A stretch of DNA of 64,000 nucleotides from assembly GCF_003019035.1 (NCBI RefSeq), contig NZ_CP027447.1; one strand, given 5' to 3'. Position numbers and translations under genes: made by a program. Of the stretch, positions 5,596 to 41,999 are shown piece after piece. Under the pieces are notes generated by a model. The model saw only the letters and a list, made by a program, of their open reading frames with translations, was not told where the DNA came from and made no database searches. The first letter of the stretch is position 1; each line of letters opens with the position of its first letter. The DNA comes from Escherichia coli. Its GTDB lineage: Bacteria; Pseudomonadota; Gammaproteobacteria; Enterobacterales; Enterobacteriaceae.

Positions 5596-6495
5596 ATGAC
5601 AGACAACTCTCGTTTACGCATAGCTATGCAGAAATCAGGCCGTTTAAGTGATGACTCACGCGAATTACTGGCGCGCTGTGGCATTAAAATCAATCTTCAC
5701 ACCCAGCGCCTGATTGCGATGGCAGAAAACATGCCGATTGATATTCTGCGCGTGCGTGACGATGACATTCCCGGTCTGGTAATGGACGGCGTGGTAGACC
5801 TTGGGATTATCGGCGAAAACGTGCTGGAAGAAGAGCTGCTTAACCGCCGCGCCCAGGGTGAAGATCCGCGCTACTTTACCCTGCGTCGTCTGGATTTCGG
5901 CGGCTGCCGCCTTTCGCTGGCAACGCCGGTTGATGAAGCCTGGGACGGTCCGCTCTCCTTAAACGGTAAACGTATCGCCACCTCTTATCCTCACCTGCTC
6001 AAGCGTTATCTCGACCAGAAAGGTATCTCTTTTAAATCCTGCTTACTGAACGGTTCTGTCGAAGTTGCGCCGCGTGCCGGACTGGCGGATGCGATTTGCG
6101 ATCTGGTTTCCACCGGTGCCACGCTGGAAGCTAACGGCCTGCGCGAAGTCGAAGTTATCTACCGCTCGAAAGCCTGCCTAATCCAGCGCGATGGCGAAAT
6201 GGAAGAATCCAAACAGCAACTGATCGACAAACTGCTGACCCGTATTCAGGGTGTTATCCAGGCGCGCGAATCAAAATACATCATGATGCACGCACCGACC
6301 GAACGCCTGGATGAAGTCATCGCCCTGCTGCCAGGTGCCGAACGCCCAACTATTCTGCCGCTGGCAGGTGACCAACAGCGCGTAGCGATGCACATGGTCA
6401 GCAGCGAAACCCTGTTCTGGGAAACGATGGAAAAACTGAAAGCGCTGGGTGCCAGTTCAATTCTGGTCCTGCCGATTGAGAAGATGATGGAGTGA
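5596..6495 (+). CDS. hisG: ATP phosphoribosyltransferase
   Basis: translation [29 protein letters not shown]..., 299 aa from the internal ATG preceded by AAGAGG SD. Confidence 0.9.
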
Positions 6496-12729: not shown

Positions 12730-13437
12730 ACCAGCCGCGCCCTAACAGGCGCACACGATCTGACATTTGCATCCAACTTCGTTACTTACGGCCCGTAAAC
12801 GGGCTGCCCGGATAGGGAATCGATAACTGCTCTCCCATTTTATCCTCTTCAAGCTGGTGCTTTATGTAATCCTGTATCTTCGCCGTGTTCTTACCCACCG
12901 TATCGACGTAATACCCTCTGCACCAGAACTCCCTGTTCCTGTATTTGAATTTCAAATCAACAAACTGCTCGTAAAGCATTAGACTGCTTTTCCCTTTCAG
13001 ATATCCCATAAAGCCGGATACGCTCATTTTGGGCGGGATCTCCACAAGCATATGGATATGATCTGCACAGCATTCAGCTTCCAGAATCCGTACACTTTTC
13101 CACTCACACAGCTTTCTCAAAATACAGCCTATTGCTCTACGCTTCTCTCTGTAGAACACCTGTCTTCGGTATTTTGGCGCAAATACTATGTGATATTTAC
13201 AGTTCCATCGGGTGTGCGCTAAGCTCTTTTCGTTCCCCATTGGGACCCCCTTTTGATTTCTTGTTTGACACTTGCAGTTGCCAGACCGCAAGGTGTTTTA
13301 ACAAATCAAAAGGGGTTTTAATAACTGGCTCAAAGCTGAAAGCTTTCCGGAACCCCCAGCCTAGCTGGGGGTTTTCTGTGCACAAAAAAACGGGCAAGGT
13401 GTCACCACCCTGCCCATTTTCTTTAAAACCGAAAAGA
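12730..13437 (-). mobile_element. IS200-family (IS200/IS605) insertion sequence, about 0.7 kb; ends approximate (+/- 15 bp)
   Basis: single Y1/HuH transposase gene plus the characteristic structured end (hairpins AACCCCCAGCCTAGCTGGGGGTT and GGGCAAGGTGTCACCACCCTGCCC at 13365-13430) upstream of tnpA; no terminal inverted repeats expected for this family. Confidence 0.7.
12782..13240 (-). CDS. tnpA: IS200-type Y1 (HuH) transposase TnpA
   Basis: 152 aa from MGNEKSLAHTRWNCKYHIVFAPKYRR...; HuH motif (HIHMLV) and C-terminal catalytic Tyr region (YIKHQ). Confidence 0.85.
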   Translation of the reverse strand: MGNEKSLAHTRWNCKYHIVFAPKYRRQVFYREKRRAIGCILRKLCEWKSVRILEAECCADHIHMLVEIPPKMSVSGFMGYLKGKSSLMLYEQFVDLKFKYRNREFWCRGYYVDTVGKNTAKIQDYIKHQLEEDKMGEQLSIPYPGSPFTGRK

Positions 13438-15973: not shown

Positions 15974-17380
15974 TTAATCCAGCCATTCGGTGTGGAATAC
16001 ACCTTCTTTATCAATGCGCTTATAGGTATGTGCACCGAAATAGTCACGCTGCGCCTGGATCAAGTTTGCTGGCAGTACTGCGGCACGATAGCTGTCATAA
16101 TAAGCAACCGCTGCAGAGAAGGTAGGTACTGGAATGCCGTTCTGCACCGCATAAGCAAGAACATCACGCAGAGCTTGCTGGTAATCGTCGGCAATTTTCT
16201 TAAAGTACGGGGCTAACAGCAGGTTAGCGATCTTCGGATTTTCAGCGTAAGCATCAGTGATTTTCTGCAGGAACTGAGCGCGGATGATACAGCCAGCACG
16301 GAAGATCTTCGCGATTTCACCATAGTTCAGATCCCAGTTGTACTCTTCAGACGCGGCACGTAGCTGTGAGAAGCCCTGAGCGTAAGAAACAATCTTACCC
16401 AGATAAAGCGCACGACGAACTTTCTCAATGAACTCAGCTTTATCGCCTGCTGGTTGTGCTTGCGGACCGGACAGTACTTTAGACGCTGCAACACGCTGCT
16501 CTTTGAGAGAAGAGATGTAACGTGCAAACACTGATTCAGTGATCAGTGACAGAGGCTCACCGAGATCCAGTGCGCTCTGGCTAGTCCACTTACCAGTACC
16601 TTTGTTAGCTGCCTCATCCAGAATCACATCGACCAGGTAGTTACCGTCTTCATCTTTTTTGGTGAAGATATCTTTAGTGATGTCGATCAGGTAGCTGCTC
16701 AGTTCACCGTTGTTCCACTCGGTAAAGGTTTGTGCCAGTTCTTCGTTAGAGAGATTCAGACCACCTTTCAGCAGAGAATAGGCTTCAGCAATCAGTTGCA
16801 TATCACCGTATTCAATACCGTTGTGAACCATCTTCACATAGTGACCTGCGCCATCGGCACCAATATAGGTAACGCACGGTTCGCCATCTTCAGCCACGGC
16901 GGCGATTTTGGTCAGGATAGGTGCAACCAGTTCATAGGCTTCTTTCTGCCCACCAGGCATGATAGAAGGTCCTTTCAGCGCGCCCTCTTCACCACCGGAA
17001 ACACCCGTACCGATGAAGTTAAAGCCTTCTGCAGAAAGCTCCCGGTTACGACGAATAGTATCCTGGAAGAAGGTATTACCACCATCAATGATGATATCTC
17101 CTTTATCGAGATATGGTTTAAGGGAATCAATAGCAGCATCCGTGCCTGCACCTGCTTTCACCATTAACAGGATGCGACGAGGCGTTTCCAGAGATTCAAC
17201 GAACTCTTTCACCGTATAGTAAGGAACCAGTTTCTTGCCTGGATTTTCAGCAATCACTTCTTCCGTCTTTTCACGGGAACGGTTGAAAATAGAGACGGTA
17301 TAACCACGGCTTTCGATGTTGAGCGCGAGGTTGCGTCCCATCACTGCCATACCGACGACGCCGATCTGTTGCTTTGACAT
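15974..17380 (-). CDS. gnd: 6-phosphogluconate dehydrogenase (decarboxylating)
   Basis: 468 aa, [27 protein letters not shown]... Confidence 0.9.
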
Positions 17381-17573: not shown

Positions 17574-18998
17574 TCAAGAAATTAAAGATATAATATTCCC
17601 AAGCACATTCGTAACATATTGCTTAGCCTGATTTTCATCACTGCCTTCAGCGTAACAACGGAGTTCAGGGGCATTTCCGGAAGGACGGAGATGTATAATA
17701 TCACCATTAGTTAAAATAAATCTTGCACCATCCGTTTCATCAATAGTGGAACAGGATAATGATTCATACCCTAATTTATTAAAGAAATTATTGGGTGATG
17801 AAATGGCATTTTTTATAATTTTCTGACTTGACTCTGAAGGAAAGTTTTTCACTCTATCTGACCAAGTGAATCGCTGTGGAAGATTATTAACCAGTTGAGA
17901 GATAGTACTATTGCGAGAAGCTATTAAGAGCATTAACGCTGGTAATACTGCATCTCGAGTAGGTAACGCATTTAATTCTTTGCCATTAATTTGTAAATCG
18001 GAGGCAAGCAGAAAACCGCCATTAGCTTCAAAACCAGCGACTGAATCAAATTGTTTAGCAAGTTCTGAAAACGCTGCAATCACATAAGGAGAGCCAATTT
18101 TAGTCCGTTGTATATTTGCAAATTTATGAGATTGTTCAATTGCTGTATTACAACTCACTGGAATAGCCAACGCCTTGATATTAAGTTCAATAGCCGTAAG
18201 TAATCCCAGAATATCGCCTCTTAGCCATTCACCATTTTCATCGGCAACTAAAGGGCGATCACCATCACCATCTGTTGAGAAAATTGCATCGAGATTGTAT
18301 TTTTTAGACCACTCTCTTGCAAGTAGACGATCTTCTTCGCTAACTGCTTCCGTATCAATAGGAACGAACTCATCACTTCTACCGAGGGAGATGACCTCAG
18401 CACCCAATTGATTAAAAAGTGGAGCATATAAATCTCGTCCTGCACTAGAATGTTCATAGATCCCAATTCTCTTCCCCTTTAAAATATCGGAATTAAAAAG
18501 AGAAACATAACGTTCCAGGTAGCAATCCGCACCTTGAGTACTTGTTTCAAGATGAGGTAATACATCTACAGGAGAAAAAACATATTCACTATTTACTATT
18601 GCTAACTCATCCTCTTTTGTGATTTCACCATCTGGACGGTAAAATTTCAAACCATTACGGTCAAAAGGTATGTGACTACCGGTAACCATTATGCAGGGGA
18701 TGTTTTTCTGTATGGAATAATGAGCTAATGCAGGGGTCGGAATTACACCATGATATTCAACAGCGAACCCATGTTGTTTGATAGCGAACGCGCATGCCTG
18801 AGCAATTTCATAACTACTCGGGCGGTTGTCAATGGCTAAAGCAACTTTATTAAAATTGTATTTGTCATCAATAACAGAAAGAAACGCATGACTGAAGGCT
18901 GCACAAACATCATGGGTAAAATCGATGACTAAACCACGAGCACCACTAGTGCCGAAAGCAATATTGCTATCGGTAATGATTTTGTTAGCATTTAACAT
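17574..18998 (-). CDS. alpha-D-phosphohexomutase (ManB-like phosphomannomutase candidate), O-antigen cluster copy
   Basis: 474 aa; phosphoserine-loop motif TGSHIPFDRNG; last gene of the AT-rich cluster; clearly different from the colanic acid CpsG. Confidence 0.65.
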   Translation of the reverse strand: MLNANKIITDSNIAFGTSGARGLVIDFTHDVCAAFSHAFLSVIDDKYNFNKVALAIDNRPSSYEIAQACAFAIKQHGFAVEYHGVIPTPALAHYSIQKNIPCIMVTGSHIPFDRNGLKFYRPDGEITKEDELAIVNSEYVFSPVDVLPHLETSTQGADCYLERYVSLFNSDILKGKRIGIYEHSSAGRDLYAPLFNQLGAEVISLGRSDEFVPIDTEAVSEEDRLLAREWSKKYNLDAIFSTDGDGDRPLVADENGEWLRGDILGLLTAIELNIKALAIPVSCNTAIEQSHKFANIQRTKIGSPYVIAAFSELAKQFDSVAGFEANGGFLLASDLQINGKELNALPTRDAVLPALMLLIASRNSTISQLVNNLPQRFTWSDRVKNFPSESSQKIIKNAISSPNNFFNKLGYESLSCSTIDETDGARFILTNGDIIHLRPSGNAPELRCYAEGSDENQAKQYVTNVLGNIISLIS

Positions 18999-19003
18999 GA
19001 TGA

Positions 19004-19750
19004 TTACTTCTTAATAAATTGAGGAAGTTTGGATAGATTTTTATACGCTAAAGCTATTGGCCAGATAATACCATTCTGTTTCATAGCGCGAATATCTTCC
19101 ATTGATTTATTGATCATGGAAGATACTGAGCGATTGCTAATTCCACCAACACGCATTTTCACTAATACTTTTGGTAAGTACGCTATTGAAATACGCTGTT
19201 TTAAAATATAACGTAATAATGAGTCATAATCAGCAGATATTCGGTAATCTAATGAAAAACAACCAAACTGACTATAACAATCGCGTTTCATATAAAATGA
19301 TGGGTGTGGCGGCATCCAACCTAGTTTCATCTTCAAACGGCTAAATGAGCCACTCTTCCATAATCTAATACGTTTAGTTGTATCATTTTTGGCAACATAC
19401 TCCAAATCACCATAAACAGCATCACACCCTGAACTTTCAAATGTTTTTACTATATCTGCAATAGCATCGTCATAAGCAAGTAAGTCATCAGAGTGCAAAA
19501 ATCCAATTATATCACCAGAAGCTGCTTGAATACCTTTATTCAGTGCATCATAAATGCCATTGTCGGGTTCGCAAATGATTGTTGAAACTCTTGTACATTT
19601 ACTCTTGATTAGCTCTATTGTATTATCTTTCGATGCCCCATCTACAACTATATATTCAATATCTGAATGTGTTTGTTTTTCCAGAGAGAGTAATGTATCA
19701 AGAAGCGTTTTTTCACTATTATAAGTTGCTGTGATAATTGAAATCCGCAT
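19004..19750 (-). CDS. family 2 glycosyltransferase (GT-A fold)
   Basis: 248 aa, N-terminal ISIITATYN...VVDGASKD pattern typical of GT2. Confidence 0.65.
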   Translation of the reverse strand: MRISIITATYNSEKTLLDTLLSLEKQTHSDIEYIVVDGASKDNTIELIKSKCTRVSTIICEPDNGIYDALNKGIQAASGDIIGFLHSDDLLAYDDAIADIVKTFESSGCDAVYGDLEYVAKNDTTKRIRLWKSGSFSRLKMKLGWMPPHPSFYMKRDCYSQFGCFSLDYRISADYDSLLRYILKQRISIAYLPKVLVKMRVGGISNRSVSSMINKSMEDIRAMKQNGIIWPIALAYKNLSKLPQFIKK

Positions 19751-21156
19751 TAGTATCCAACTCCAGAAGAAGAAACTCTTATAACATCATCCTCTTCCAA
19801 GTAGACTCCTGATCTAACCTCAATTATTTCAAGTGGGATCTTGCCAGGATTTTCAATGGCATGTGGAACACCAACAGGTATATATGTTGATTCATTTTCT
19901 GAAACAAGATAAGTTTTCTCCTCAAGATGAACTTTAGCTGTCCCCGAGACAACAATCCAATGTTCAGTACGATGGTAATGGATCTGCTTAGCGGTAATGT
20001 GACCCGGTAATACAATCACATGTTTAACCTGAAAGCGTTGCCCTTCAGCTATAGTGTCATGACTGCCCCAAGGACGAAAAATTTCCCGATGTTGTAAATA
20101 TTCTGTTCGATTATTCTTTTTAAGCTGAGCTACGATGTTTTTAACTTGCTGAACTTTATCTTTATGAGCAACTAATACTGCATCTTTCGTTTCAACGACA
20201 ACCAAATCCTTTACGCCCACGGCCCCAATAAGTCTATGCTGCGAATAAAGATAACTATCTGTAGCATCCTCAACCAAAACATCACCACGAATGGCATTGC
20301 CGCTTTGGTCTTTTGAACTTATTTCCCACAGCGCAGACCATGACCCAACATCACTCCATTGCGCATCCAATGGTACGACCACAGCTTCAGCTGTTTTTTC
20401 CATAACGGCATAGTCGATTGACTCTTCAGGGCAGCAAGAAAAAGAAGAGTTATCCAAGCGGATAAAATCTAAATCTTGAGTCGAGGAAGCTAAGGATTGC
20501 TGACAACTCTCTAGAATATCTGGACGGAATTTTTTTAGTTCATCGATGAATACAGATGCTCTGAACATAAACATTCCACTATTCCAAAGATAACCGCCAT
20601 CTGACAAATACCGCTGAGCTAATTCTAGCTCTGGCTTTTCAACAAAAGCTGCAACTTTATAACCTTGCCCACTAAGTGGATCACCTGACTTAATATAGCC
20701 ATACCCTGTCTCTGGAGCTGTTGGAACGATGCCAAATGTGACCAACTTACCTTGCTGCGCAAAGTCCTTCGCGGCCAAAACTGCTGTAATGAAACTATTC
20801 TCATCCTGAATTTCATGGTCAGCCGCAAGAACCAAAAGTATAGGATCCTCTCCACTTGCCGTTGCCTGAAGCGCTGCAAGGGCTACAGCAGGTGCCGTAT
20901 TGCGCCCAACAGGCTCAAGCAAAATCCCACTATGCTTTAAACCAACTTTACGTAATTGTTCAGCAACAATGAAACGATGTGATTCATTACAAATGATCAA
21001 AGCAGGATTGTGTTCAATCTTTTCTAGCCGTCGCAAAGTCTCTTGCAACATAGTTAAGCGGCTATTTAAAGACAGAAATTGTTTCGGATAAAGTGTACGT
21101 GAAAGAGGCCATAATCTGGTACCAGATCCACCGGCCATGACAACGGGAAGTAGCAT
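19750..21156 (-). CDS. manC: mannose-1-phosphate guanylyltransferase (ManC), O-antigen cluster copy
   Basis: 468 aa, close paralogue of CpsB further downstream ([15 protein letters not shown]... C-terminal cupin region). Confidence 0.85.
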   Translation of the reverse strand: MLLPVVMAGGSGTRLWPLSRTLYPKQFLSLNSRLTMLQETLRRLEKIEHNPALIICNESHRFIVAEQLRKVGLKHSGILLEPVGRNTAPAVALAALQATASGEDPILLVLAADHEIQDENSFITAVLAAKDFAQQGKLVTFGIVPTAPETGYGYIKSGDPLSGQGYKVAAFVEKPELELAQRYLSDGGYLWNSGMFMFRASVFIDELKKFRPDILESCQQSLASSTQDLDFIRLDNSSFSCCPEESIDYAVMEKTAEAVVVPLDAQWSDVGSWSALWEISSKDQSGNAIRGDVLVEDATDSYLYSQHRLIGAVGVKDLVVVETKDAVLVAHKDKVQQVKNIVAQLKKNNRTEYLQHREIFRPWGSHDTIAEGQRFQVKHVIVLPGHITAKQIHYHRTEHWIVVSGTAKVHLEEKTYLVSENESTYIPVGVPHAIENPGKIPLEIIEVRSGVYLEEDDVIRVSSSGVGY

Positions 21157-21161
21157 ATCTA

Positions 21162-21623
21162 TTACCTTGATATAAAATAATTTTTGGTATATTGATGAAC
21201 TGTAGTGCTATTAAGCAACGTTACTACATCAAACCACTTGTAGGAATTATGCTGAATCGTTGGTAGGCGAAGTTGCTGCGGATTAATTTGAATTTCATAT
21301 CCATGCACTACGTAGTGTGTAGAAAAATCTACTTCAGAAAAATTGTCATTGTAAAAGTGTTCATACACACCAAGAAATATGGCCTCACCAAGACTAGTTT
21401 GAACGCCTAACTCTTCAAATGTGATCCTTTTAAAAGCATCCTCGAATGACTCGTCCTTAAAAATTCGCCCTCCAGGCACAAACCAATAATTTTTTGCGGG
21501 GCGATTCAGGCGCTGCCCAAGCAGCGCCTCTCCTTTATCGTTTCTAATTACGAGGTCAATCGAGATTAGAGGAGTATGCTTGACTATTGTTTTAAATAAC
21601 TCATATTCTAATCTCTTTTTCAT
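21162..21623 (-). CDS. gmm: GDP-mannose mannosyl hydrolase (Nudix), O-antigen cluster copy
   Basis: 153 aa, alignable by eye with the colanic acid Gmm/WcaH ([20 protein letters not shown]). Confidence 0.75.
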   Translation of the reverse strand: MKKRLEYELFKTIVKHTPLISIDLVIRNDKGEALLGQRLNRPAKNYWFVPGGRIFKDESFEDAFKRITFEELGVQTSLGEAIFLGVYEHFYNDNFSEVDFSTHYVVHGYEIQINPQQLRLPTIQHNSYKWFDVVTLLNSTTVHQYTKNYFISR

Positions 21624-21625
21624 AA

Positions 21626-22591
21626 CTATCCCCGAAAAGAATCAATATTCTCAAGAAACCATTTATATGTTAATGATAGACCTTCATGTAAATTATAGCG
21701 ATGTTGCCAGCCCAAGTTTTTGAGTCGGGTAACGTCCATAAGTTTTCGCGGGGTGCCATCTGGTTTGGTCGCGTCAAAAACAATTTTTCCTTGATAACCC
21801 ACTACAGAAGCCATTGTTTCAGCCATTTCACGTATAGAACAATCCACCCCCGTACCTACATTAATATGAGATAACATTGGTTGTGTATTTTGTTGATAAA
21901 TTGCGTCCTCTAACTCCATCACATGAACCGAGGCAGCAGCCATATCATCAACATATAAAAACTCACGCATCGGCATTCCCGTGCCCCAGACAATAACTTC
22001 TTGTGCACCACTTTCTTTTGCCTCATGGAATCTACGCATAAGCGCCGGAATAACATGGGAGTTTTCAGGATGGAAGTTATCATTCGAACCATAAAGATTA
22101 GTAGGCATTACACTTCTATAATCGCGACCATATTGACGATTATAAGACTCACATAATTTTATGCCCGCAATCTTAGCAATTGCGTATGGCTCATTAGTTG
22201 GCTCAAGTATGCCCGTCAAAAGTGCAGACTCTTTCATCGGCTGCTCAGCAAATTTTGGATAAATACAGCTAGAGCCTAAAAAAAGTAATTTTTGAATTCC
22301 AACCTTGTGAGCTGAATGTATAATATTACTCTCAATCATGAGATTCTGATAAATGAATTCTGCTGGAAATGTATTATTGGCATAAATACCACCTACTTTT
22401 GCCGCAGCAAGATAAACCTGATCAACCCTCTCTCTCTCAAAAAATGCCTCAACATCCTTCTGCACGGTCAGATCGAGTTCTTTGTGTGTTTTAACCACTA
22501 ACTCGATATCATCACGCAGCGATAATTGTCGGCAAATAGCAGAGCCAACCATGCCCTGGTGCCCAGCAACATATACTCTTTTCTTTATCAT
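21626..22591 (-). CDS. fcl: GDP-L-fucose synthase, O-antigen cluster copy
   Basis: 321 aa; long identical stretches with the colanic acid Fcl ([40 protein letters not shown]). Confidence 0.85.
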
Positions 22592-22594
22592 GTA

Positions 22595-23728
22595 TTAACG
22601 CTCCAGAGAAACCGAAACATCATAACCATGGCTTTTAAGAAGTGCATGTTGTTTCGCTTTTAACAAATCGCTAGCAACCATTTCTGCACACATCTCTTCA
22701 ACTGTAATCTCTGGTTCCCAGCCTAATAGATTTTTTGCTTTTGCAGGGTCACCTAAGAGTGTTTCAACTTCAGCAGGACGGAAATAACGAGGATCAACCC
22801 GAACTATAACGTCTCCAACATTTACACCAATAGCACAATCGGAAATTTTATTAACTACTGTGGCTATCTCATCTACACCCTCACCAGAGAATTCAAGTTC
22901 AAGTCCGACTTCTTTAGCAGCCATACGGACAAATTCACGCACAGATATCTGTTTACCTGTGGCAATGACAAAATCCTCTGGATGATCTTGCTGAAGCATC
23001 ATCCATTGCATGCGAACATAATCTTTAGCGTGTCCCCAGTCACGCAACGAATCCAGATTACCCAAATATAAGCATTGTTCGATCCCCTGAGAAATATTAG
23101 CTATTGCACGAGTAATTTTACGGGTAACAAAAGTTTCTCCACGGCGTGGCGATTCATGGTTAAAAAGAATACCATTACAAGCATATATACCATAAGATTC
23201 ACGGTAGTTAACTGTTATCCAGTAAGCATACATCTTAGCTACAGCATAAGGCGAACGCGGGTAGAATGGAGTTGTTTCACGCTGAGGAATCTCTTGCACT
23301 AAACCAAAAAGTTCTGAAGTAGATGCTTGATAGAAACGTGTTTTTTTCTCCAGCCCACAGATTCGTATTGCTTCTAATAAACGTAATGTCCCTATTGCAT
23401 CTACATCTGCTGTATATTCTGGTGACTCGAATGACACTGCGACATGGGATTGTGCACCAAGGTTATAAATTTCATCCGGTTGAATTTCTTGGATTAAACG
23501 GATCAGATTCGATGTATCTGTTAAATCCCCATAGTGTAAAATAAAATTAGGCTCATCAACGAATCGTGATTGATATATATGATCAATTCTATCAGTGTTA
23601 AATGACGATGCTCGGCGTTTTATACCATGTACTTCATAACCTTTTTCAATAAGAAATTCTGCAAGATATGAACCATCTTGTCCAGTTACGCCTGTGATAA
23701 ATGCAACTTTTTTATTCATTTTAATCAT
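22595..23728 (-). CDS. gmd: GDP-mannose 4,6-dehydratase, O-antigen cluster copy
   Basis: 377 aa, [16 protein letters not shown] motif; paralogue of the colanic acid gmd; true start may be the internal Met (MNKKVAF). Confidence 0.85.
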
Positions 23729-23737
23729 GTTATGTTC

Positions 23738-24769
23738 CTAAATATTCAACTCATTATAAACTTTAATCGTTTCATTAACACATTTTGACCATGAAAATTT
23801 TTGCGCCTGCAGTAAACCTCTTTCGATCATAACATTTCTTTTTAAATTAACTAATTCTAAAGCTTCTTTTAACGTAAACTCATTAATATCATCAATATAA
23901 ATAGGCGCATTCCCCCCTACTTCCGGCAACGAGGATGTGTTTGCACAAATAACTGGACATCCGGCCTGCATAGCTTCTAGGACAGGTATTCCAAACCCCT
24001 CATAACTGGAAGGGTAAACAAGTGCATATGCAGTATTATACTGTATATTTAAATCTTCATTACTCAAAAATGTAAAATGTTCATATCTATTTTTTAAATA
24101 TTTTTCAAGGAGTTCTCTTTCATATTTTTTAAGCGAGCCTCCGCCTACAATTGTAAGCTTTAAGCCATGTAATTTCCCTACAGCTTTGACTGCAAGAACG
24201 AAATTTTTATAACCTTCTCTGGCACCGACAAACAAAACTGAATTATTTACTCTCATATCAGACATGTTAGAAATATGTTTATATGATGGGGATACACCAT
24301 TATAAATCACTCTAATTTTATCTTCGCTAATTGGACAGTACTTAAGTAAATCTCTAGCAGTGTTGTTTGAAATACAAATTACGATATCACTATTCTTGAT
24401 AGCATGATATTTTTGAAGAGAATGAATAAATTTTGACATTCCTCCCCTGTATTTTTCATAGGTGAAATCATGAACAGTTGTAACATTTTTCACATTCAAA
24501 TTAGGACTTTTATGAACTCGATAATAACTTGAGTGTAAAACCCTAGTTTTAATATCACTTACATTTCTATATCTTTCTAAAATTCTTGGCTTACGATATT
24601 GCAACTTTAAGTCGCTTGTATCAAACTCAAATTCTTTATTTTTATACAATAGAATTTCAGCTTGGTAATTTGATTTCACCATTCCTTGGATCAACTCATT
24701 AAAGTATACACTTATTCCACCAAATGATTGGAGATTATAAATAATCCCATCGATAGTTACCATTATCAT
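23738..24769 (-). CDS. GT-B fold glycosyltransferase (GT4-like)
   Basis: 343 aa; C-terminal region with EGFGIPVLEAM motif characteristic of GT4 retaining transferases. Confidence 0.65.
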   Translation of the reverse strand: MIMVTIDGIIYNLQSFGGISVYFNELIQGMVKSNYQAEILLYKNKEFEFDTSDLKLQYRKPRILERYRNVSDIKTRVLHSSYYRVHKSPNLNVKNVTTVHDFTYEKYRGGMSKFIHSLQKYHAIKNSDIVICISNNTARDLLKYCPISEDKIRVIYNGVSPSYKHISNMSDMRVNNSVLFVGAREGYKNFVLAVKAVGKLHGLKLTIVGGGSLKKYERELLEKYLKNRYEHFTFLSNEDLNIQYNTAYALVYPSSYEGFGIPVLEAMQAGCPVICANTSSLPEVGGNAPIYIDDINEFTLKEALELVNLKRNVMIERGLLQAQKFSWSKCVNETIKVYNELNI

Positions 24770-26022
24770 CGCCCTCGCAAGGTAATACGTTCGATTAGAA
24801 CGAACAATATCAAAAAGAAGATCAGTAACAATACATATGCCGGCCCAGCAAAATAAGTTCCAAATGAAGGTGAAATGAGAATTATAGAAAGCAAAAAAAA
24901 GGATGCAGAGTTCGTAATTACTTTTGCATTAAACATTTTAAGCTTAGCAAAAATATAGCCATAAAAGATATTCATAGGTGAAAGAAAAGTTAAAATGATC
25001 AGTCCAACATATCCATAATCAACAAAATTATCCATCCCTTTTGAAAAAGCAGGTGTATGCCCCGACTCTGCAGCTCCTGGATAATAGATTTCATTTACAT
25101 GCAGAAATCCATATACAAAAGGTTTATCAGGAAACAAACCTCTCGGTATATAAGACCAAAATTGGCTGAAATAGACTGTGCCATTGAAAAACTTAACCAC
25201 ACCTTTATCAATATCTTGTAGCAAATAAATACTGTTTTGATACTGGTCAAAATAAGACAATACTACATCGACATTCATATTTCCAATAGCTAAAAATAAA
25301 TTATAGAGAATGGCACACGCTGCCAGGGGTGTAACTAAAATCAGGCCAAATTTTAGAAATCTAGATTTATTAAGACTTAACACTGCAAGATAAAAAATCG
25401 CAAATGAAAGAATAAAGGTTTTCGATCCAAGAAAAAAAACCAAGGTACAATAGAATATCGCGCATAAAAATAATTTTATTTCCGAGCGTAAAGCCAACGC
25501 CCTGGAAAAATAAGATACCGAAAGCATACTTAAAGAAAAGGCATATAAAACACCATTACCTTCTCGATAGTTTTGATAACCATCCCTGGGATTCGTCAAC
25601 CATCCAGAAATACCTATTTCTGACTTTGAAGAAAGAAGAACAAATAATGTAATAAACAGAACCAATGTAATATTTGATATTCTTTTTAATTTTGTATGCG
25701 AAATTAAGCAAGTTAAATAGATCTCTCTATTTTTGAATGCTATATTAAAAATAAAATAAAAGAAAATTATAGATAAAACACCCACAAAAGAGTATATGTT
25801 ATATATAAATAAAGCCTCATTATAATATTGATTTAAAGCAAAGTCTGAACCGTAGAAAAGAGGAGCCAAAATATTTTCCAATAGAAAAACCGGAAATAAA
25901 ATAATGGCGTAAATGGTAAAGGGATTGATAATTGTAAGTCTTAGCGTTTTCGTCGCTAATAAAGAAAAAGAATAATATAGTACTATAGCTAGTGTAACAT
26001 TTAAACAATATATTATTACCAC
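24766..26022 (-). CDS. wzy: O-antigen polymerase candidate
   Basis: 418 aa, very hydrophobic multi-pass membrane protein with low-complexity AT-rich codon usage, located between glycosyltransferase genes; start codon uncertain. Confidence 0.55.
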   Translation of the reverse strand: MVIIYCLNVTLAIVLYYSFSLLATKTLRLTIINPFTIYAIILFPVFLLENILAPLFYGSDFALNQYYNEALFIYNIYSFVGVLSIIFFYFIFNIAFKNREIYLTCLISHTKLKRISNITLVLFITLFVLLSSKSEIGISGWLTNPRDGYQNYREGNGVLYAFSLSMLSVSYFSRALALRSEIKLFLCAIFYCTLVFFLGSKTFILSFAIFYLAVLSLNKSRFLKFGLILVTPLAACAILYNLFLAIGNMNVDVVLSYFDQYQNSIYLLQDIDKGVVKFFNGTVYFSQFWSYIPRGLFPDKPFVYGFLHVNEIYYPGAAESGHTPAFSKGMDNFVDYGYVGLIILTFLSPMNIFYGYIFAKLKMFNAKVITNSASFFLLSIILISPSFGTYFAGPAYVLLLIFFLILFVLIERITLRGR

Positions 26023-28816: not shown

Positions 28817-29359
28817 TCAATAATTATTTTGTATAAATGGAGTACCCAAACAATCTTTTTGTGATATAAGAGGTTCTTTGTATAATTGCCAATCTATGTT
28901 AAGTAAAGCATCATTCCAAATAATACATTTCTCATGTTCTTTTGAGTAAAAATTATTGGTCTTATACAATATTTCTGAACCTTCTTCTTTTACATAAAAA
29001 CCATGCGCAAACCCTTCCGGGATCCACAACTGGCGCTTATTCTCAGCAGACAAATTCACTCCAACCCATTTCCCAAATGTAGGTGACGATTTACGAATAT
29101 CAACCGCAACATCAAAAACTTCACCAACAACACAGCGCACCAGTTTTCCTTGAGCATAAGGTTCTAACTGATAATGCAACCCTCGTAAAACACCTTTTCT
29201 GGACTTAGAATGATTGTCCTGAACAAACTCAACCTTACGCCCTACAACCTCTTCGAAAACTTTCTGATTAAAGCTTTCCATAAAGAAGCCACGTTCATCC
29301 CCAAAAACTTTTGGTTCAAAAATCAGCACATCAGGAATTTCAGTTTTAATTACGTTCAT
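28817..29359 (-). CDS. rfbC: dTDP-4-dehydrorhamnose 3,5-epimerase
   Basis: 180 aa, cupin-fold RmlC-like sequence (FGDERGFFMESF..., GLHYQ). Confidence 0.85.
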   Translation of the reverse strand: MNVIKTEIPDVLIFEPKVFGDERGFFMESFNQKVFEEVVGRKVEFVQDNHSKSRKGVLRGLHYQLEPYAQGKLVRCVVGEVFDVAVDIRKSSPTFGKWVGVNLSAENKRQLWIPEGFAHGFYVKEEGSEILYKTNNFYSKEHEKCIIWNDALLNIDWQLYKEPLISQKDCLGTPFIQNNY

Positions 29360-29363
29360 CTTA

Positions 29364-30242
29364 TTAATAACCTTTAATCATTTTGAGCAGATACTGACCA
29401 TAAGCATTTTTCTTCAACGGTTCGGCTAATACTTTTACCTGCTCAGCATCAATAAACCCTTTACGATAAGCAATTTCTTCCGGACAGGAAACCTTTAGTC
29501 CCTGGCGCTCTTCAATGGTGGCAATGAAGTTGCTTGCTTCAATAAGACTTTGATGCGTCCCTGTATCCAGCCATGCATAGCCACGCCCCATCATAGCGAC
29601 AGACAAACGTCCTTGTTCCATATAAATACGGTTAATATCGGTAATTTCCAGTTCACCTCGGGCAGAAGGCTTAAGGTTTTTCGCCATTTCCACAACGTCA
29701 TTGTCATAGAAATAAAGCCCAGTAACCGCATAGTTACTTTTTGGTTCCAGCGGTTTTTCTTCCAGGCTAATTGCAGTACCGTTATTATCAAACTCCACGA
29801 CACCATAGCGTTCAGGATCATTAACGTGATAAGCAAATACCGTTGCACCGATTTCTTTGTTAACAGCAGCTTCCATTAATTTTGGCAAGTCGTGTCCATA
29901 GAAGATATTATCACCAAGCACAAGTGCACAATCATCACCTCCAATAAAGTCTTCACCAATGATAAACGCTTGCGCCAGGCCATCCGGACTCGGTTGTACT
30001 TTATACTGTAGATTAAGCCCCCATTGGCTCCCGTCCCCCAACAAATGTTGGAAACGCGGTGTATCCTGTGGAGTACTGATAATAAGAATATCGCGAATAC
30101 CCGCTAACATAAGCGTTGAAAGCGGATAATAAATCATAGGTTTATCATAAATCGGCAACAGTTGTTTACTCACGGCCATAGTCACAGGATAAAGACGAGT
30201 GCCGGAACCACCAGCTAAAATAATACCTTTACGCGTTTTCAT
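29364..30242 (-). CDS. rfbA: glucose-1-phosphate thymidylyltransferase
   Basis: 292 aa, [21 protein letters not shown]... Confidence 0.9.
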
Positions 30243-30300
30243 TTCACCATTCCTTTTAATTCATCCCGCTCTGGCATCATAAGCGAGATGCAAAAATTTG

Positions 30301-31200
30301 TTAAATTGCCGTAGTCGTAAATAATTCGTTGAGCATTCGTTTCACACCCACCTGCCAGTCAGGCAAGACAAGCGCAAAGTTCTGCTGAAACTTTTCTGTA
30401 TTGAGGCGAGAGTTATGGGGTCGACGGGCTGGTGTGGGATAGGCCGTTGTTGGCACGGCGTTAAGTTTGTTAAGAGCAAGGTTAATCCCTGCTTTGCGCG
30501 CTTCTTCAAATACCAGAGCGGCATAATCGTGCCAGGTTGTTGTACCGCCAGCAACCAGATGGTACAAACCAGCAACTTCTGGTTTGTCTACTGCTACGCG
30601 AATGGCATGAGCGGTGCAATCAGCCAGCAATTCGGCACCTGTTGGTGCGCCAAACTGATCGTTTATCACAGCCAGTTCTTCGCGCTCTTTTGCCAGACGC
30701 AACATTGTTTTGGCGAAGTTATTTCCTTTACCTGCATATACCCAGCTGGTACGGAAAATAATATGCTTCGCGCAATGTTTCTGTAACGCTTTTTCTCCGG
30801 CTAGTTTAGTTTCACCATAAACATTCAAAGGTGCTGTAGCATCCGTCTCCTGCCACGGTATTTCACCGGTTCCCGGAAATACGTAGTCAGTAGAGTAGTG
30901 AATAACCCAAGCGCCGACTTCATTAGCTGCTTTTGCAATCGCTTCGACACTTGTCGCGTTAAGTAATTGTGCAAATTCCGGTTCTGATTCCGCTTTGTCT
31001 ACTGCAGTGTGAGCAGCCGCATTAACAATAACATCAGGGCGAATTTTTTTGACAGTTTCAGCTACACCTTCGGGATTACTAAAATCACCACAATAATCAG
31101 TGGAGTGAACATCAAGAGCAATCAGATTACCCAGCGGTGCCAGAGCACGCTGCAGTTCCCAACCTACCTGCCCTGTTTTGCCGAATAGGAGGATATTCAT
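30301..31200 (-). CDS. rfbD: dTDP-4-dehydrorhamnose reductase
   Basis: 299 aa, [20 protein letters not shown]... Confidence 0.9.
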   Translation of the reverse strand: MNILLFGKTGQVGWELQRALAPLGNLIALDVHSTDYCGDFSNPEGVAETVKKIRPDVIVNAAAHTAVDKAESEPEFAQLLNATSVEAIAKAANEVGAWVIHYSTDYVFPGTGEIPWQETDATAPLNVYGETKLAGEKALQKHCAKHIIFRTSWVYAGKGNNFAKTMLRLAKEREELAVINDQFGAPTGAELLADCTAHAIRVAVDKPEVAGLYHLVAGGTTTWHDYAALVFEEARKAGINLALNKLNAVPTTAYPTPARRPHNSRLNTEKFQQNFALVLPDWQVGVKRMLNELFTTTAI

Positions 31201-32285
31201 TACTGGCGGCCCTCATAGTTCTGTTCAATCCACGACTGATAAGCACCGCTTTTCACATTCTCAACCCAATTTGTATTAGCCAGATACCATTCCACCGTTT
31301 TACGAATACCGCTCTCAAACGTTTCTTGCGGTTTCCAGCCCAATTCGCGGCTAATTTTATCGGCATCAATTGCATAACGGCGATCATGCCCTGGGCGATC
31401 AGCAACATAGGTAATTTGCTCACGATAAGATTTCTCTTTCGGGACTATCTCATCCAACAAATCACAAATAGTGAACACTACGTCGATGTTTTTCTTTTCG
31501 TTGTGTCCACCAATGTTATAAGTTTCGCCTGCTTTACCTTCGGTTACGACGGTATATAACGCTCGAGCATGATCCTCTACATACAACCAGTCGCGGATCT
31601 GATCTCCTTTGCCATAAATAGGTAATGCCTTACCTTCCAGTGCATTAAGAATAACCAGTGGAATAAGCTTTTCCGGGAAATGATAAGGACCATAGTTGTT
31701 CGAGCAATTAGTCACAATGGTCGGTAAACCATAAGTACGTTTCCATGCGCGAACCAAATGATCGCTGGAAGCTTTAGAAGCAGAATATGGACTACTTGGC
31801 GCGTATGCTGTCGTTTCCGTAAATAGCGGCAACGTTTCATTGCTATTTACTTCATCCGGATGGGGTAAGTCACCATACACCTCATCAGTAGAAATATGAT
31901 GAAAACGGAAGTTTTTTTTCTTTTCATCATCCAGACCAGACCAATAATTGCGCGCCGCTTCTAAAAGAACATAAGTACCCACAATATTGGTTTCAATAAA
32001 TGCCGCAGGGCCAGTTATTGAGCGGTCAACGTGGCTCTCTGCTGCCAGGTGCATCACCGCGTCTGGCTGGTGCTGTGCGAAAATACGAGCCATCGCTTCG
32101 GCATCGCAGATATCTGCATGCTCAAATGAATAACGTTCAGAATCAGAAATTTCAGCGAGTGATTCCAGGTTTCCGGCGTATGTTAATTTATCGACATTAA
32201 CAACACTATCTTGCGTATTATTTATTATGTGACGAACAACAGCAGAACCAATAAATCCTGCGCCACCAGTAACAAGTATCTTCAC
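31200..32285 (-). CDS. rfbB: dTDP-glucose 4,6-dehydratase
   Basis: 361 aa from a GTG start ([21 protein letters not shown]); the ORF-track 384-aa reading is an upstream over-extension. Confidence 0.9.
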
Positions 32286-32359
32286 TTTTTTATTCCATAT
32301 AGCCAGAGAGCATGCTGTGAAATAGACTGCTCCAGATTTGATTAATAGATGCATTAATG

Positions 32360-40628: not shown

Positions 40629-41999
40629 TTACTCGTTCAGCAACGTCAGCAGAGTTCGCGTTCGCGCTTCCATCAGCGGCACATCACCGCGCGATTCCAC
40701 ATTCAACCGCACCACCGGTTCGGTGTTGGAGGAGCGCAGGTTAAAGCGCCAGTCGGCAAAGGTCATGCTGATGCCATCGGTGCGATCCACCGCCAGCGCC
40801 TCACGGCTAAAATGCTGTTCCACGCGGTTAATCGCCTCAACGGGTTGCGCCAGTTTGCTGTTGATCTCACCGCTTGCCGGAAACGCTGCCATCCGGTCGC
40901 GCACCAGTTCGCCCAGCGTTTTTCCTTTCAGGCACACCAGTTCGGCGACCAGCAGCCACGGGATCATGCCGCTGTCGCAGTAAGCGAAATCACGGAAATA
41001 GTGGTGGGCGCTCATTTCGCCACCGTAGATGGCGTCTTCCTTGCGCATACGTTCTTTAATAAAGGCGTGTCCGGTTTTCGACATTACCGGGGTGCCGCCT
41101 GCGGCAGTCACCACATCAACGGTGTTCCAGGAGAGACGTGGATCGTGGATGATCTTCGCGCCGGGATTTTTTTCGAGGAACGCTTCTGCCAGCAGGCCGA
41201 CAATGTAGTAGCCCTCAATAAACTGCCCTTTTTCGTCAAACAGGAAACAGCGGTCAAAATCGCCATCAAAAGCAATGCCCATATCCGCGCCGTGTTTAAT
41301 GACCGCATTGCGGGTGTCGTCGCGACATTCCGGCAGCAACGGGTTAGGAATACCGTTGGGGAAATTGCCGTCCGGCGTGTTATGCACTTTGATTAACTCC
41401 ACCGGTGCGCCGAGGGCTTTAAAGCGGGCTTCGATGGCGTCCACCACCGGACCCGCTGCGCCGTTCCCGGAGTTGATCACCAGCTTGAGCGGCGTAAGGT
41501 TTTTGATATTGATATAACCGAACAGGTGATCAACGTATGCATCACGCAGGTTGATTTGCTGATAGCGACCGCGTTTGGTTTCATCAACGGGAGGAAAGTC
41601 GTTGGCTTCTGCCAGACGCTGGACGTCGCGCAGTCCGGTATCGCCGCTGATCGGGCGAGCCCCTTCGCGCACCAGCTTCATGCCGTTGTAATCCATCGGG
41701 TTATGGCTGGCGGTAACTTCGATGCCGCCATCCACGCCGAGATGGAACGTGGCGAAATAGATTTCTTCGGTGCCGGACATACCGATATCCAGCACATCGA
41801 CGCCCGCATCCTGTAAACCTTTCGCCAGCGCCAGTTTTAAGGTTTCGCTGGTGAGGCGGACATCACCGCCTAACACAATGGTTTTCGGTTTGAGAAATTC
41901 GCCATAGGCGCGACCAATGCGCCAGGCGATATCTTCATTCAGTTCTTCGCCTAATTTCCCGCGAATATCATAGGCTTTAAAGCAGGTTAATTTTTTCAT
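40629..41999 (-). CDS. cpsG: phosphomannomutase, colanic acid copy
   Basis: 456 aa from [14 protein letters not shown]; TASHNP phosphoserine motif. Confidence 0.9.

Follow-up and report, generated by a model that had tools for sequence, protein, structure and literature searches.

The DNA analysed here (the window) is a 64,000-nucleotide stretch of Escherichia coli that is 99.97% identical to E. coli SCU-301 over 35 kb, with 7 mismatches and 5 gap openings. The gene order in SCU-301 is galF-rfbBDAC-wzx-hyp-GT2-wzy-GT4-gmd-fcl-gmm-manC-GT2-manB-gnd-ugd-wzzB-his, and RefSeq labels both wzx and wzy "O36 family". Judged from its sequence, the window can be assigned as the E. coli O36 O-antigen cluster; the O36 cluster and the O antigen's structure have been published (Perepelov et al. 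2014, as given in the review PMC7685785). The genes on which the argument rests are as follows.

manB, 17574..18998, minus strand: predicted 474-aa phosphomannomutase of the TGSHIP (Brucella ManBcore / PDB 4HJH) lineage, at the end of the O36 O-antigen cluster
GT2, 19004..19750, minus strand: 248-aa family-2 glycosyltransferase between manC and manB; annotated as GT2 in SCU-301
manC, 19750..21156, minus strand: mannose-1-phosphate guanylyltransferase / mannose-6-phosphate isomerase, which would use the ManB product
gmm, 21162..21623, minus strand: GDP-mannose mannosyl hydrolase (NUDIX)
fcl, 21626..22591, minus strand: GDP-L-fucose synthase
gmd, 22595..23728, minus strand: coordinates refer to the listed ORF, within which RefSeq places the start 9 nt further in
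rmlBDAC, about 28817-32354: dTDP-L-rhamnose pathway in the O36 cluster
cpsG, 40629..41999, minus strand: colanic-acid phosphomannomutase of the PMM/PGM (AlgC-type) lineage; annotated cpsG in SCU-301

Two further features of the region were observed. An IS200/IS605-family transposase gene lies between hisIE and wzzB at about 12782-13240 on the minus strand (IS200C tnpA in SCU-301), and this insertion is absent at that site in O156, O115, and the other strains inspected. In addition, the O36 wzy of SCU-301 is listed in RefSeq as a pseudogene ("frameshifted; internal stop"), and at the place of wzy in the window (24766-26022, minus strand) a 418-codon ORF opens with GTG and runs without interruption.

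The manB gene is the final O-antigen gene and is followed by gnd (15974-17380). It is an uninterrupted ORF on the minus strand, running from an ATG at 18998 to a stop at 17574 and encoding 474 aa, and its DNA is 100% identical to the manB of SCU-301, annotated "phosphomannomutase" (WP_001610395.1) in RefSeq. In the predicted product, each of the PGM_PMM domains I-IV (PF02878, PF02879, PF02880, and PF00408) exceeds its gathering threshold. With these four domains and the phosphoserine, metal, sugar, and phosphate loops listed below, the protein has the sequence hallmarks expected of the alpha-D-phosphohexomutase superfamily. The ORF, the Pfam matches, and the motif positions thus agree with a preliminary description of this DNA, which had recognized the terminal gene of the cluster as a 474-aa enzyme of this superfamily with an FGTSGARG and a TGSHIP motif. 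The codons of the loops are placed as follows.

FGTSGARG (aa 15-22), 18933..18956, minus strand: N-terminal active-site loop (G16, S18, R21)
TGSHIP (aa 106-111), 18666..18683, minus strand: phosphoserine loop, with Ser108 as the predicted catalytic residue
DGDGDR (aa 243-248), 18255..18272, minus strand: metal-binding loop (D243, D245, D247, R248)
GFEANGG (aa 322-328), 18015..18035, minus strand: sugar-binding loop (E324, N326)
RPSGNAP (aa 438-444), 17667..17687, minus strand: phosphate-binding loop of domain IV

All four catalytic loops of O36 ManB are intact, with conservation of at least 90% across the family in our alignment. Specifically, FGTSG.RG is kept at this level in the ManB family, and related motifs occur in GlmM, Pgm, and the archaeal enzyme 1WQA. 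GFEANGG is also kept at 90% or more and can be compared with GGEENGG in the archaeal PMM/PGM 1WQA and with GGEMSAH in CpsG; together with SGNAPELRCY, it is one of the further ManB family signatures present in the O36 protein. Ser108 aligns with the catalytic serine of CpsG, GlmM, Pgm, and 1WQA, and Ile110 stands in place of the usual Asn.

The preliminary description had also set this protein apart from the CpsG encoded in the same window (with YDIRG and TASHNP motifs) as only a distant relative, and the comparison bears this out. Counted from its Met, CpsG comprises 456 aa (the ORF in the list starts at a TTG 16 codons upstream), and its translation contains YDIRG, TASHNP, and RSSNTEP. O36 ManB is 22% identical to it by BLASTP (E 3e-8) and 20% identical in the multiple alignment, and it scores far below the cut-offs of the PMM/PGM models of NCBIfam, with 60.6 bits for NF007088 (cut-off 618) and 44 bits for NF046027 (cut-off 600). 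By motifs, identity, and scores, O36 ManB therefore falls outside the CpsG/AlgC type. The CpsG-type enzymes (CpsG, the O157 ManB, and Pseudomonas AlgC-type proteins) share the superfamily, the four-domain fold, and the pathway step with O36 ManB but form a separate clade, with YDIRG, TASHNP, DGDFDR, GEMSAH, and RSSNTEP where O36 ManB has FGTSGARG, TGSHIP, DGDGDR, FEANGG, and RPSGNAP. The two genes also differ in GC content (0.38 for manB vs 0.55 for cpsG).

To place O36 ManB, we aligned 42 sequences: the protein itself, six orthologues from E. coli, Vibrio, and Aeromonas, the Brucella structure 4HJH, 30 family representatives, and four outsiders (E. coli CpsG, GlmM, and Pgm, and archaeal 1WQA). 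In the neighbor-joining tree, a distance method applied here with few outgroups, the ManB family, including O36 ManB and 4HJH, was monophyletic in 199 of 200 bootstraps and was separated from all four outsiders by a long branch. The suggestion of a phosphomannomutase of another lineage is thus well founded, since the clade that O36 ManB forms with 4HJH lies apart from the CpsG/AlgC-type enzymes. Identity to O36 ManB in the multiple alignment was 43% for 4HJH, 25% for GlmM, 25% for 1WQA, 20% for CpsG, and 16% for Pgm. The deep order received little support, with the family joining CpsG in 83 of 200 bootstraps and GlmM plus 1WQA in 14 of 200. Outside the family, the closest proteins by score were 1WQA from Pyrococcus horikoshii (84 bits) and bacterial GlmM (structures at 55-68 bits). 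They share with O36 ManB the N-terminal FGTxGxRG loop and, for 1WQA, an ExNGG sugar loop, but they carry SHNP and SGTEP instead of SHIP and SGNAP and are 25% identical. The NCBIfam scan of O36 ManB returned no equivalog model at its cut-off: the best match was the archaeal GlmM model TIGR03990 (167.8 bits, cut-off 439), and TIGR01455 reached 100.6 bits (cut-off 447.55). Since these scores lie far below the cut-offs, O36 ManB stands outside the GlmM, archaeal GlmM, and PMM/PGM families. The TGSHIP lineage is probably cd03088 of the CDD. This separate "ManB" subfamily is listed with phosphomannomutase as its proposed function (PMC9426568, Table 1).

The family is widespread. Among 5426 complete E. 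coli genomes, 188 have a manB copy that spans 80% or more of the gene, and 332 have some match at the DNA level when weaker, partial ones are included; 2 of these 332 matches sit on plasmids and not on chromosomes. RefSeq names every listed copy of the TGSHIP-type gene phosphomannomutase, the name also given to homologues with 63-79% identity in Lelliottia, Enterobacter, Kosakonia, Photobacterium, Vibrio, Aeromonas, Photorhabdus, and others. At 50% clustering, 589 clusters match O36 ManB with E <= 1e-30. TGSHIP itself is present in all 120 close homologues and in 137 of 150 representatives of 50%-identity clusters (257/270 surveyed) and is therefore a family signature and no peculiarity of the O36 gene. 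Some very long proteins of the 50%-identity library also contain a ManB-like region (P0231, 4372 aa; P0251, 3138 aa; P0256, 3108 aa; P0264, 2432 aa; and others), with two to three matched stretches; these could be intron-bearing eukaryotic genes, fusions, or gene-calling artefacts.

The best database matches of O36 ManB have E = 0, and the best match in the PDB has E = 3e-109, so that a chance match is not a concern. The latter is 4HJH, entitled "Phosphomannomutase" (4hjh_A, E 3.1e-109, aligned to aa 10-460 of O36 ManB). 4HJH and the Brucella melitensis ManBcore (BMEII0899) belong to the same subfamily as O36 ManB, with 43% identity over 456 aa, and have FGTSGxRG, TGSHIP, DGDxDR, GFEANGG, and RxSGNAPELRCY in common with it, as well as an adjoining manC. 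The surroundings differ: the Brucella manB-manC pair is an alphaproteobacterial two-gene locus for core and O-chain synthesis with a GC content of 0.59, and the O36 gene belongs to an enterobacterial O-antigen cluster with a GC content of 0.38. From length, residue numbering, and context, rather than from an exact match to the BMEII0899 sequence, we inferred that 4HJH corresponds to ManBcore; the structure itself is unpublished. P0271, an orthologue from Brucella, shares 98% identity with 4HJH and has the G103/S104 numbering of BMEII0899. Its locus consists of two genes, manB-manC, has 5-kb flanks devoid of further genes for LPS or O antigen, and matches ManBcore. For BMEII0899, 22 active-site, substrate-binding, and metal-binding positions have been given (PMC7762576). 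Mapped via P0271, 21 of these 22 are identical in O36 ManB, G16, S18, and R21 among them, and the remaining one is a T-to-S change, at an overall identity of 43.5%. Altogether, the 43%-identical crystal structure and the existing annotation settle the family assignment.

The Brucella enzyme also provides the link to a substrate. A B. melitensis manBcore mutant makes a core without mannose and without the branch built on mannose, in which glucose is still present (PMC4817197). In vivo, loss of a phosphomannomutase would be expected to have this effect, and loss of a phosphoglucomutase would not. Functional evidence for the lineage is genetic and chemical and comes from Brucella, at 43% identity to O36 ManB; in the searchable literature, we found no enzyme assay for any TGSHIP-lineage member.

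Gene context points in the same direction. In the seven E. coli O-antigen clusters inspected (O36, O156, O115, O17/O44/O73/O77/O106, and three unnamed types), manB lies zero to one gene from manC, and the intervening gene, where present, is a glycosyltransferase. The seven cluster manBs all encode FGTSGARG, TGSHIP, DGDGDR, GFEANGG, and R[PA]SGNAP and have GC contents of 0.35-0.38. Apart from wzx, wzy, and two glycosyltransferase genes, the O17/O44/O73/O77/O106 cluster consists of manC and manB alone. Beyond E. coli, the six-gene module gmd-fcl-NUDIX-manC-GT2-manB recurs in Vibrio furnissii, and Aeromonas caviae has gmd-fcl-NUDIX-manC-GT-manB-manA, in which manA directly follows manB and completes the mannose pathway. 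The ManBs of E. coli O156, O115, the O17 family, and the unnamed types and of V. furnissii and A. caviae are 60-93% identical to O36 ManB, with identical motifs, and lie beside manC; the entire gmd-fcl-gmm-manC-GT2-manB module is common to O36, O156, and V. furnissii. Sequence divergence and serogroup-specific surroundings are all that separates these ManBs from O36 ManB. The unusualness of the gene that the preliminary description implied is consequently not borne out, as phylogenetic placement clusters it clearly with ManB orthologues of other O-antigen clusters. The manC gene was not found in the flanks of four distant family representatives (40-46% identity) or of the Catenovulum homologue (64%), and the argument from synteny is therefore confined to Brucella and the near clade. 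The proposed function is on its firmest ground in the gammaproteobacterial clade and in Brucella.

Two further observations concern these modules. The 248-aa GT2 of O36 is kept with the module, being 90% identical in O156 and 60% in V. furnissii at the same position (copies at L002, 13431-14177, and L007, 5250-5996). This enzyme may serve as a transferase dedicated to the module, perhaps for fucose. The gmd-to-manA block of A. caviae is directly followed downstream by a reverse transcriptase of the group II intron type (RVT_1 + GIIM; L009, 9168-10493) and a DDE transposase, in line with mobility of the block.

A comparison of the O36 module with three related gene sets, gene by gene, separates manB from its neighbors. 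Identities to the O36 protein are given in the order V. furnissii, O157, colanic-acid cluster.

gmd: 81%, 77%, 79%
fcl: 77%, 68%, 73%
gmm: 57%, 50%, 49%
manC: 65%, 55%, 58%
manB: 65%, 22%, 22%

In O157, the slot after manC is occupied by a CpsG-type enzyme. Since identity is 49-81% for Gmd, Fcl, Gmm, and ManC (ManC being 55-58% identical to the O157 ManC and the CpsB of the window) and yet only 22% for ManB against the O157 and colanic-acid enzymes, a distant paralogue fills the same slot. We regard this comparison as the most telling one. CpsG-type DNA was found at 5724 places in 4688 of the 5426 E. coli genomes, which leaves about 1000 extra copies; the extra copy examined, in O157, is the O-antigen manB. 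RefSeq names this O157 gene "cpsG, colanic acid biosynthesis phosphomannomutase" (strain 2009C-4687; L021, 14263-15633), and the true cpsG is also in that genome, so that the naming hides two CpsG-type copies.

Taking together the observed ORF integrity, domains, motif and site conservation, clade, gene context, and purifying selection, we infer the substrate and the reaction: O36 manB very probably encodes a catalytically intact mutase of the ManB subfamily that converts mannose-6-phosphate to mannose-1-phosphate for ManC in the gmd-fcl-gmm-manC-manB module. In this superfamily, a phosphoserine donates its phosphate to a hexose 6-phosphate via a 1,6-bisphosphate that reorients. In O36 ManB, the phosphorylated Ser108 of TGSHIP, with Mg2+ on D243/D245/D247, would give its phosphate to mannose-6-phosphate; the mannose-1,6-bisphosphate intermediate would reorient and return its 6-phosphate to the enzyme, and mannose-1-phosphate would be released. 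ManC, encoded two genes upstream of manB, would then produce GDP-mannose, which Gmd and Fcl would convert to GDP-L-fucose for the O36 O unit. In this module, the TGSHIP lineage takes the slot held by a CpsG-type manB in other serogroups, such as O157. Because cpsG is also present in E. coli O36, manB need not be essential for the supply of GDP-mannose.

The best surviving alternative is a bifunctional PMM/PGM whose phosphoglucomutase activity is physiologically relevant, for instance as a source of glucose-1-phosphate for RmlA in the dTDP-L-rhamnose pathway. The sugar-loop contacts of phosphohexomutases go to O3 and O4 and are blind to the C2 epimer, and rmlBDAC is present in O36. Moreover, 4HJH was solved with glucose-6-phosphate bound and has been termed a phosphoglucomutase (PMC7762576), so glucose phosphates at least bind. 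Likewise, GFEANGG resembles the GGEENGG of archaeal 1WQA, which is cited as a PMM/PGM enzyme (PMC9426568), and side phosphoglucomutase activity of O36 ManB is therefore plausible. However, the lineage also occurs, with manC alongside, in clusters that lack rml genes (such as O115, O156, and the O17 family), a housekeeping Pgm is present in E. coli, and the Brucella manBcore mutant still puts glucose on its core (PMC4817197). We therefore consider a physiological role for phosphoglucomutase activity quite improbable.

The preliminary description had further considered that the enzyme might act on another hexose phosphate, with consequences for the NDP-sugar produced by the cluster; this alternative is not supported. 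Under such a reading, glucosamine phosphate, N-acetylglucosamine phosphate, or another hexose phosphate would be the primary substrate, or the enzyme would be a glucose-1,6-bisphosphate synthase, and the sugar output of the cluster would differ. The GlmM models are indeed the best NCBIfam matches, identity to GlmM and 1WQA (25%) is slightly higher than to CpsG (20%), and recent work has shown a neglected branch of the superfamily to act as a Glc-1,6-BP synthase (PMC9426568). Nevertheless, the GlmM scores fall far short of the cut-offs (168 vs 439 and 101 vs 448 bits), the ManB family is a clade of its own, and the E. coli, Vibrio, Aeromonas, and Brucella loci inspected provide a context of manC, gmd, fcl, and manA with no glmU/glmS-type genes. 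In addition, manB adjoins manC in seven clusters and shares its slot with the CpsG-type manB of O157, the Brucella phenotype is mannose-specific, and without a phosphomannomutase of its own the cluster would depend on cpsG for GDP-mannose. Another primary specificity thus appears very improbable indeed. Finally, although cpsG is intact in the same window, a decaying or redundant, functionless manB has practically no probability and was ruled out by conservation and dN/dS: the ORF is intact and TGSHIP present in 10 of 10 ManB genes compared, the catalytic motifs are kept, dN/dS is 0.10 against O156 manB and 0.10-0.17 over the comparisons made, and copies covering at least 80% of the gene are found in 188 E. 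coli genomes.

Beyond the assignment of O36 manB as a phosphomannomutase gene, we offer some more speculative readings, which we consider rather unlikely to hold. The TGSHIP lineage might be a strict phosphomannomutase in which the Asn-to-Ile change alters activation or bisphosphate handling, or it might be bifunctional and feed both GDP-mannose and dTDP-rhamnose. Separately, the O14 cluster was apparently lost through homologous recombination between cpsG and manB (review PMC7685785). A TGSHIP-type manB has no usable DNA similarity to cpsG, and its cluster would therefore be shielded from such recombination; in our view, this could be the reason why both lineages persist in E. coli.

The significance of the finding is small, as it is real but ordinary: O36 manB lies in a published cluster, had been annotated before, and belongs to a known subfamily for which a structure is available. 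The TGSHIP type has a crystal structure and a wide distribution, yet its published enzymology seems to be lacking in the searchable literature. The name "cpsG" for the O157 manB and the plain "phosphomannomutase" for the O36 gene mask the distinction between the two lineages, and low similarity to CpsG is no sign of a different sugar product. Altogether, the O36 cluster encodes a complete, self-contained branch from GDP-mannose to GDP-L-fucose, and the manB slot of E. coli O-antigen clusters is filled by either of two very distant paralogues, both of whose lineages are in wide use.
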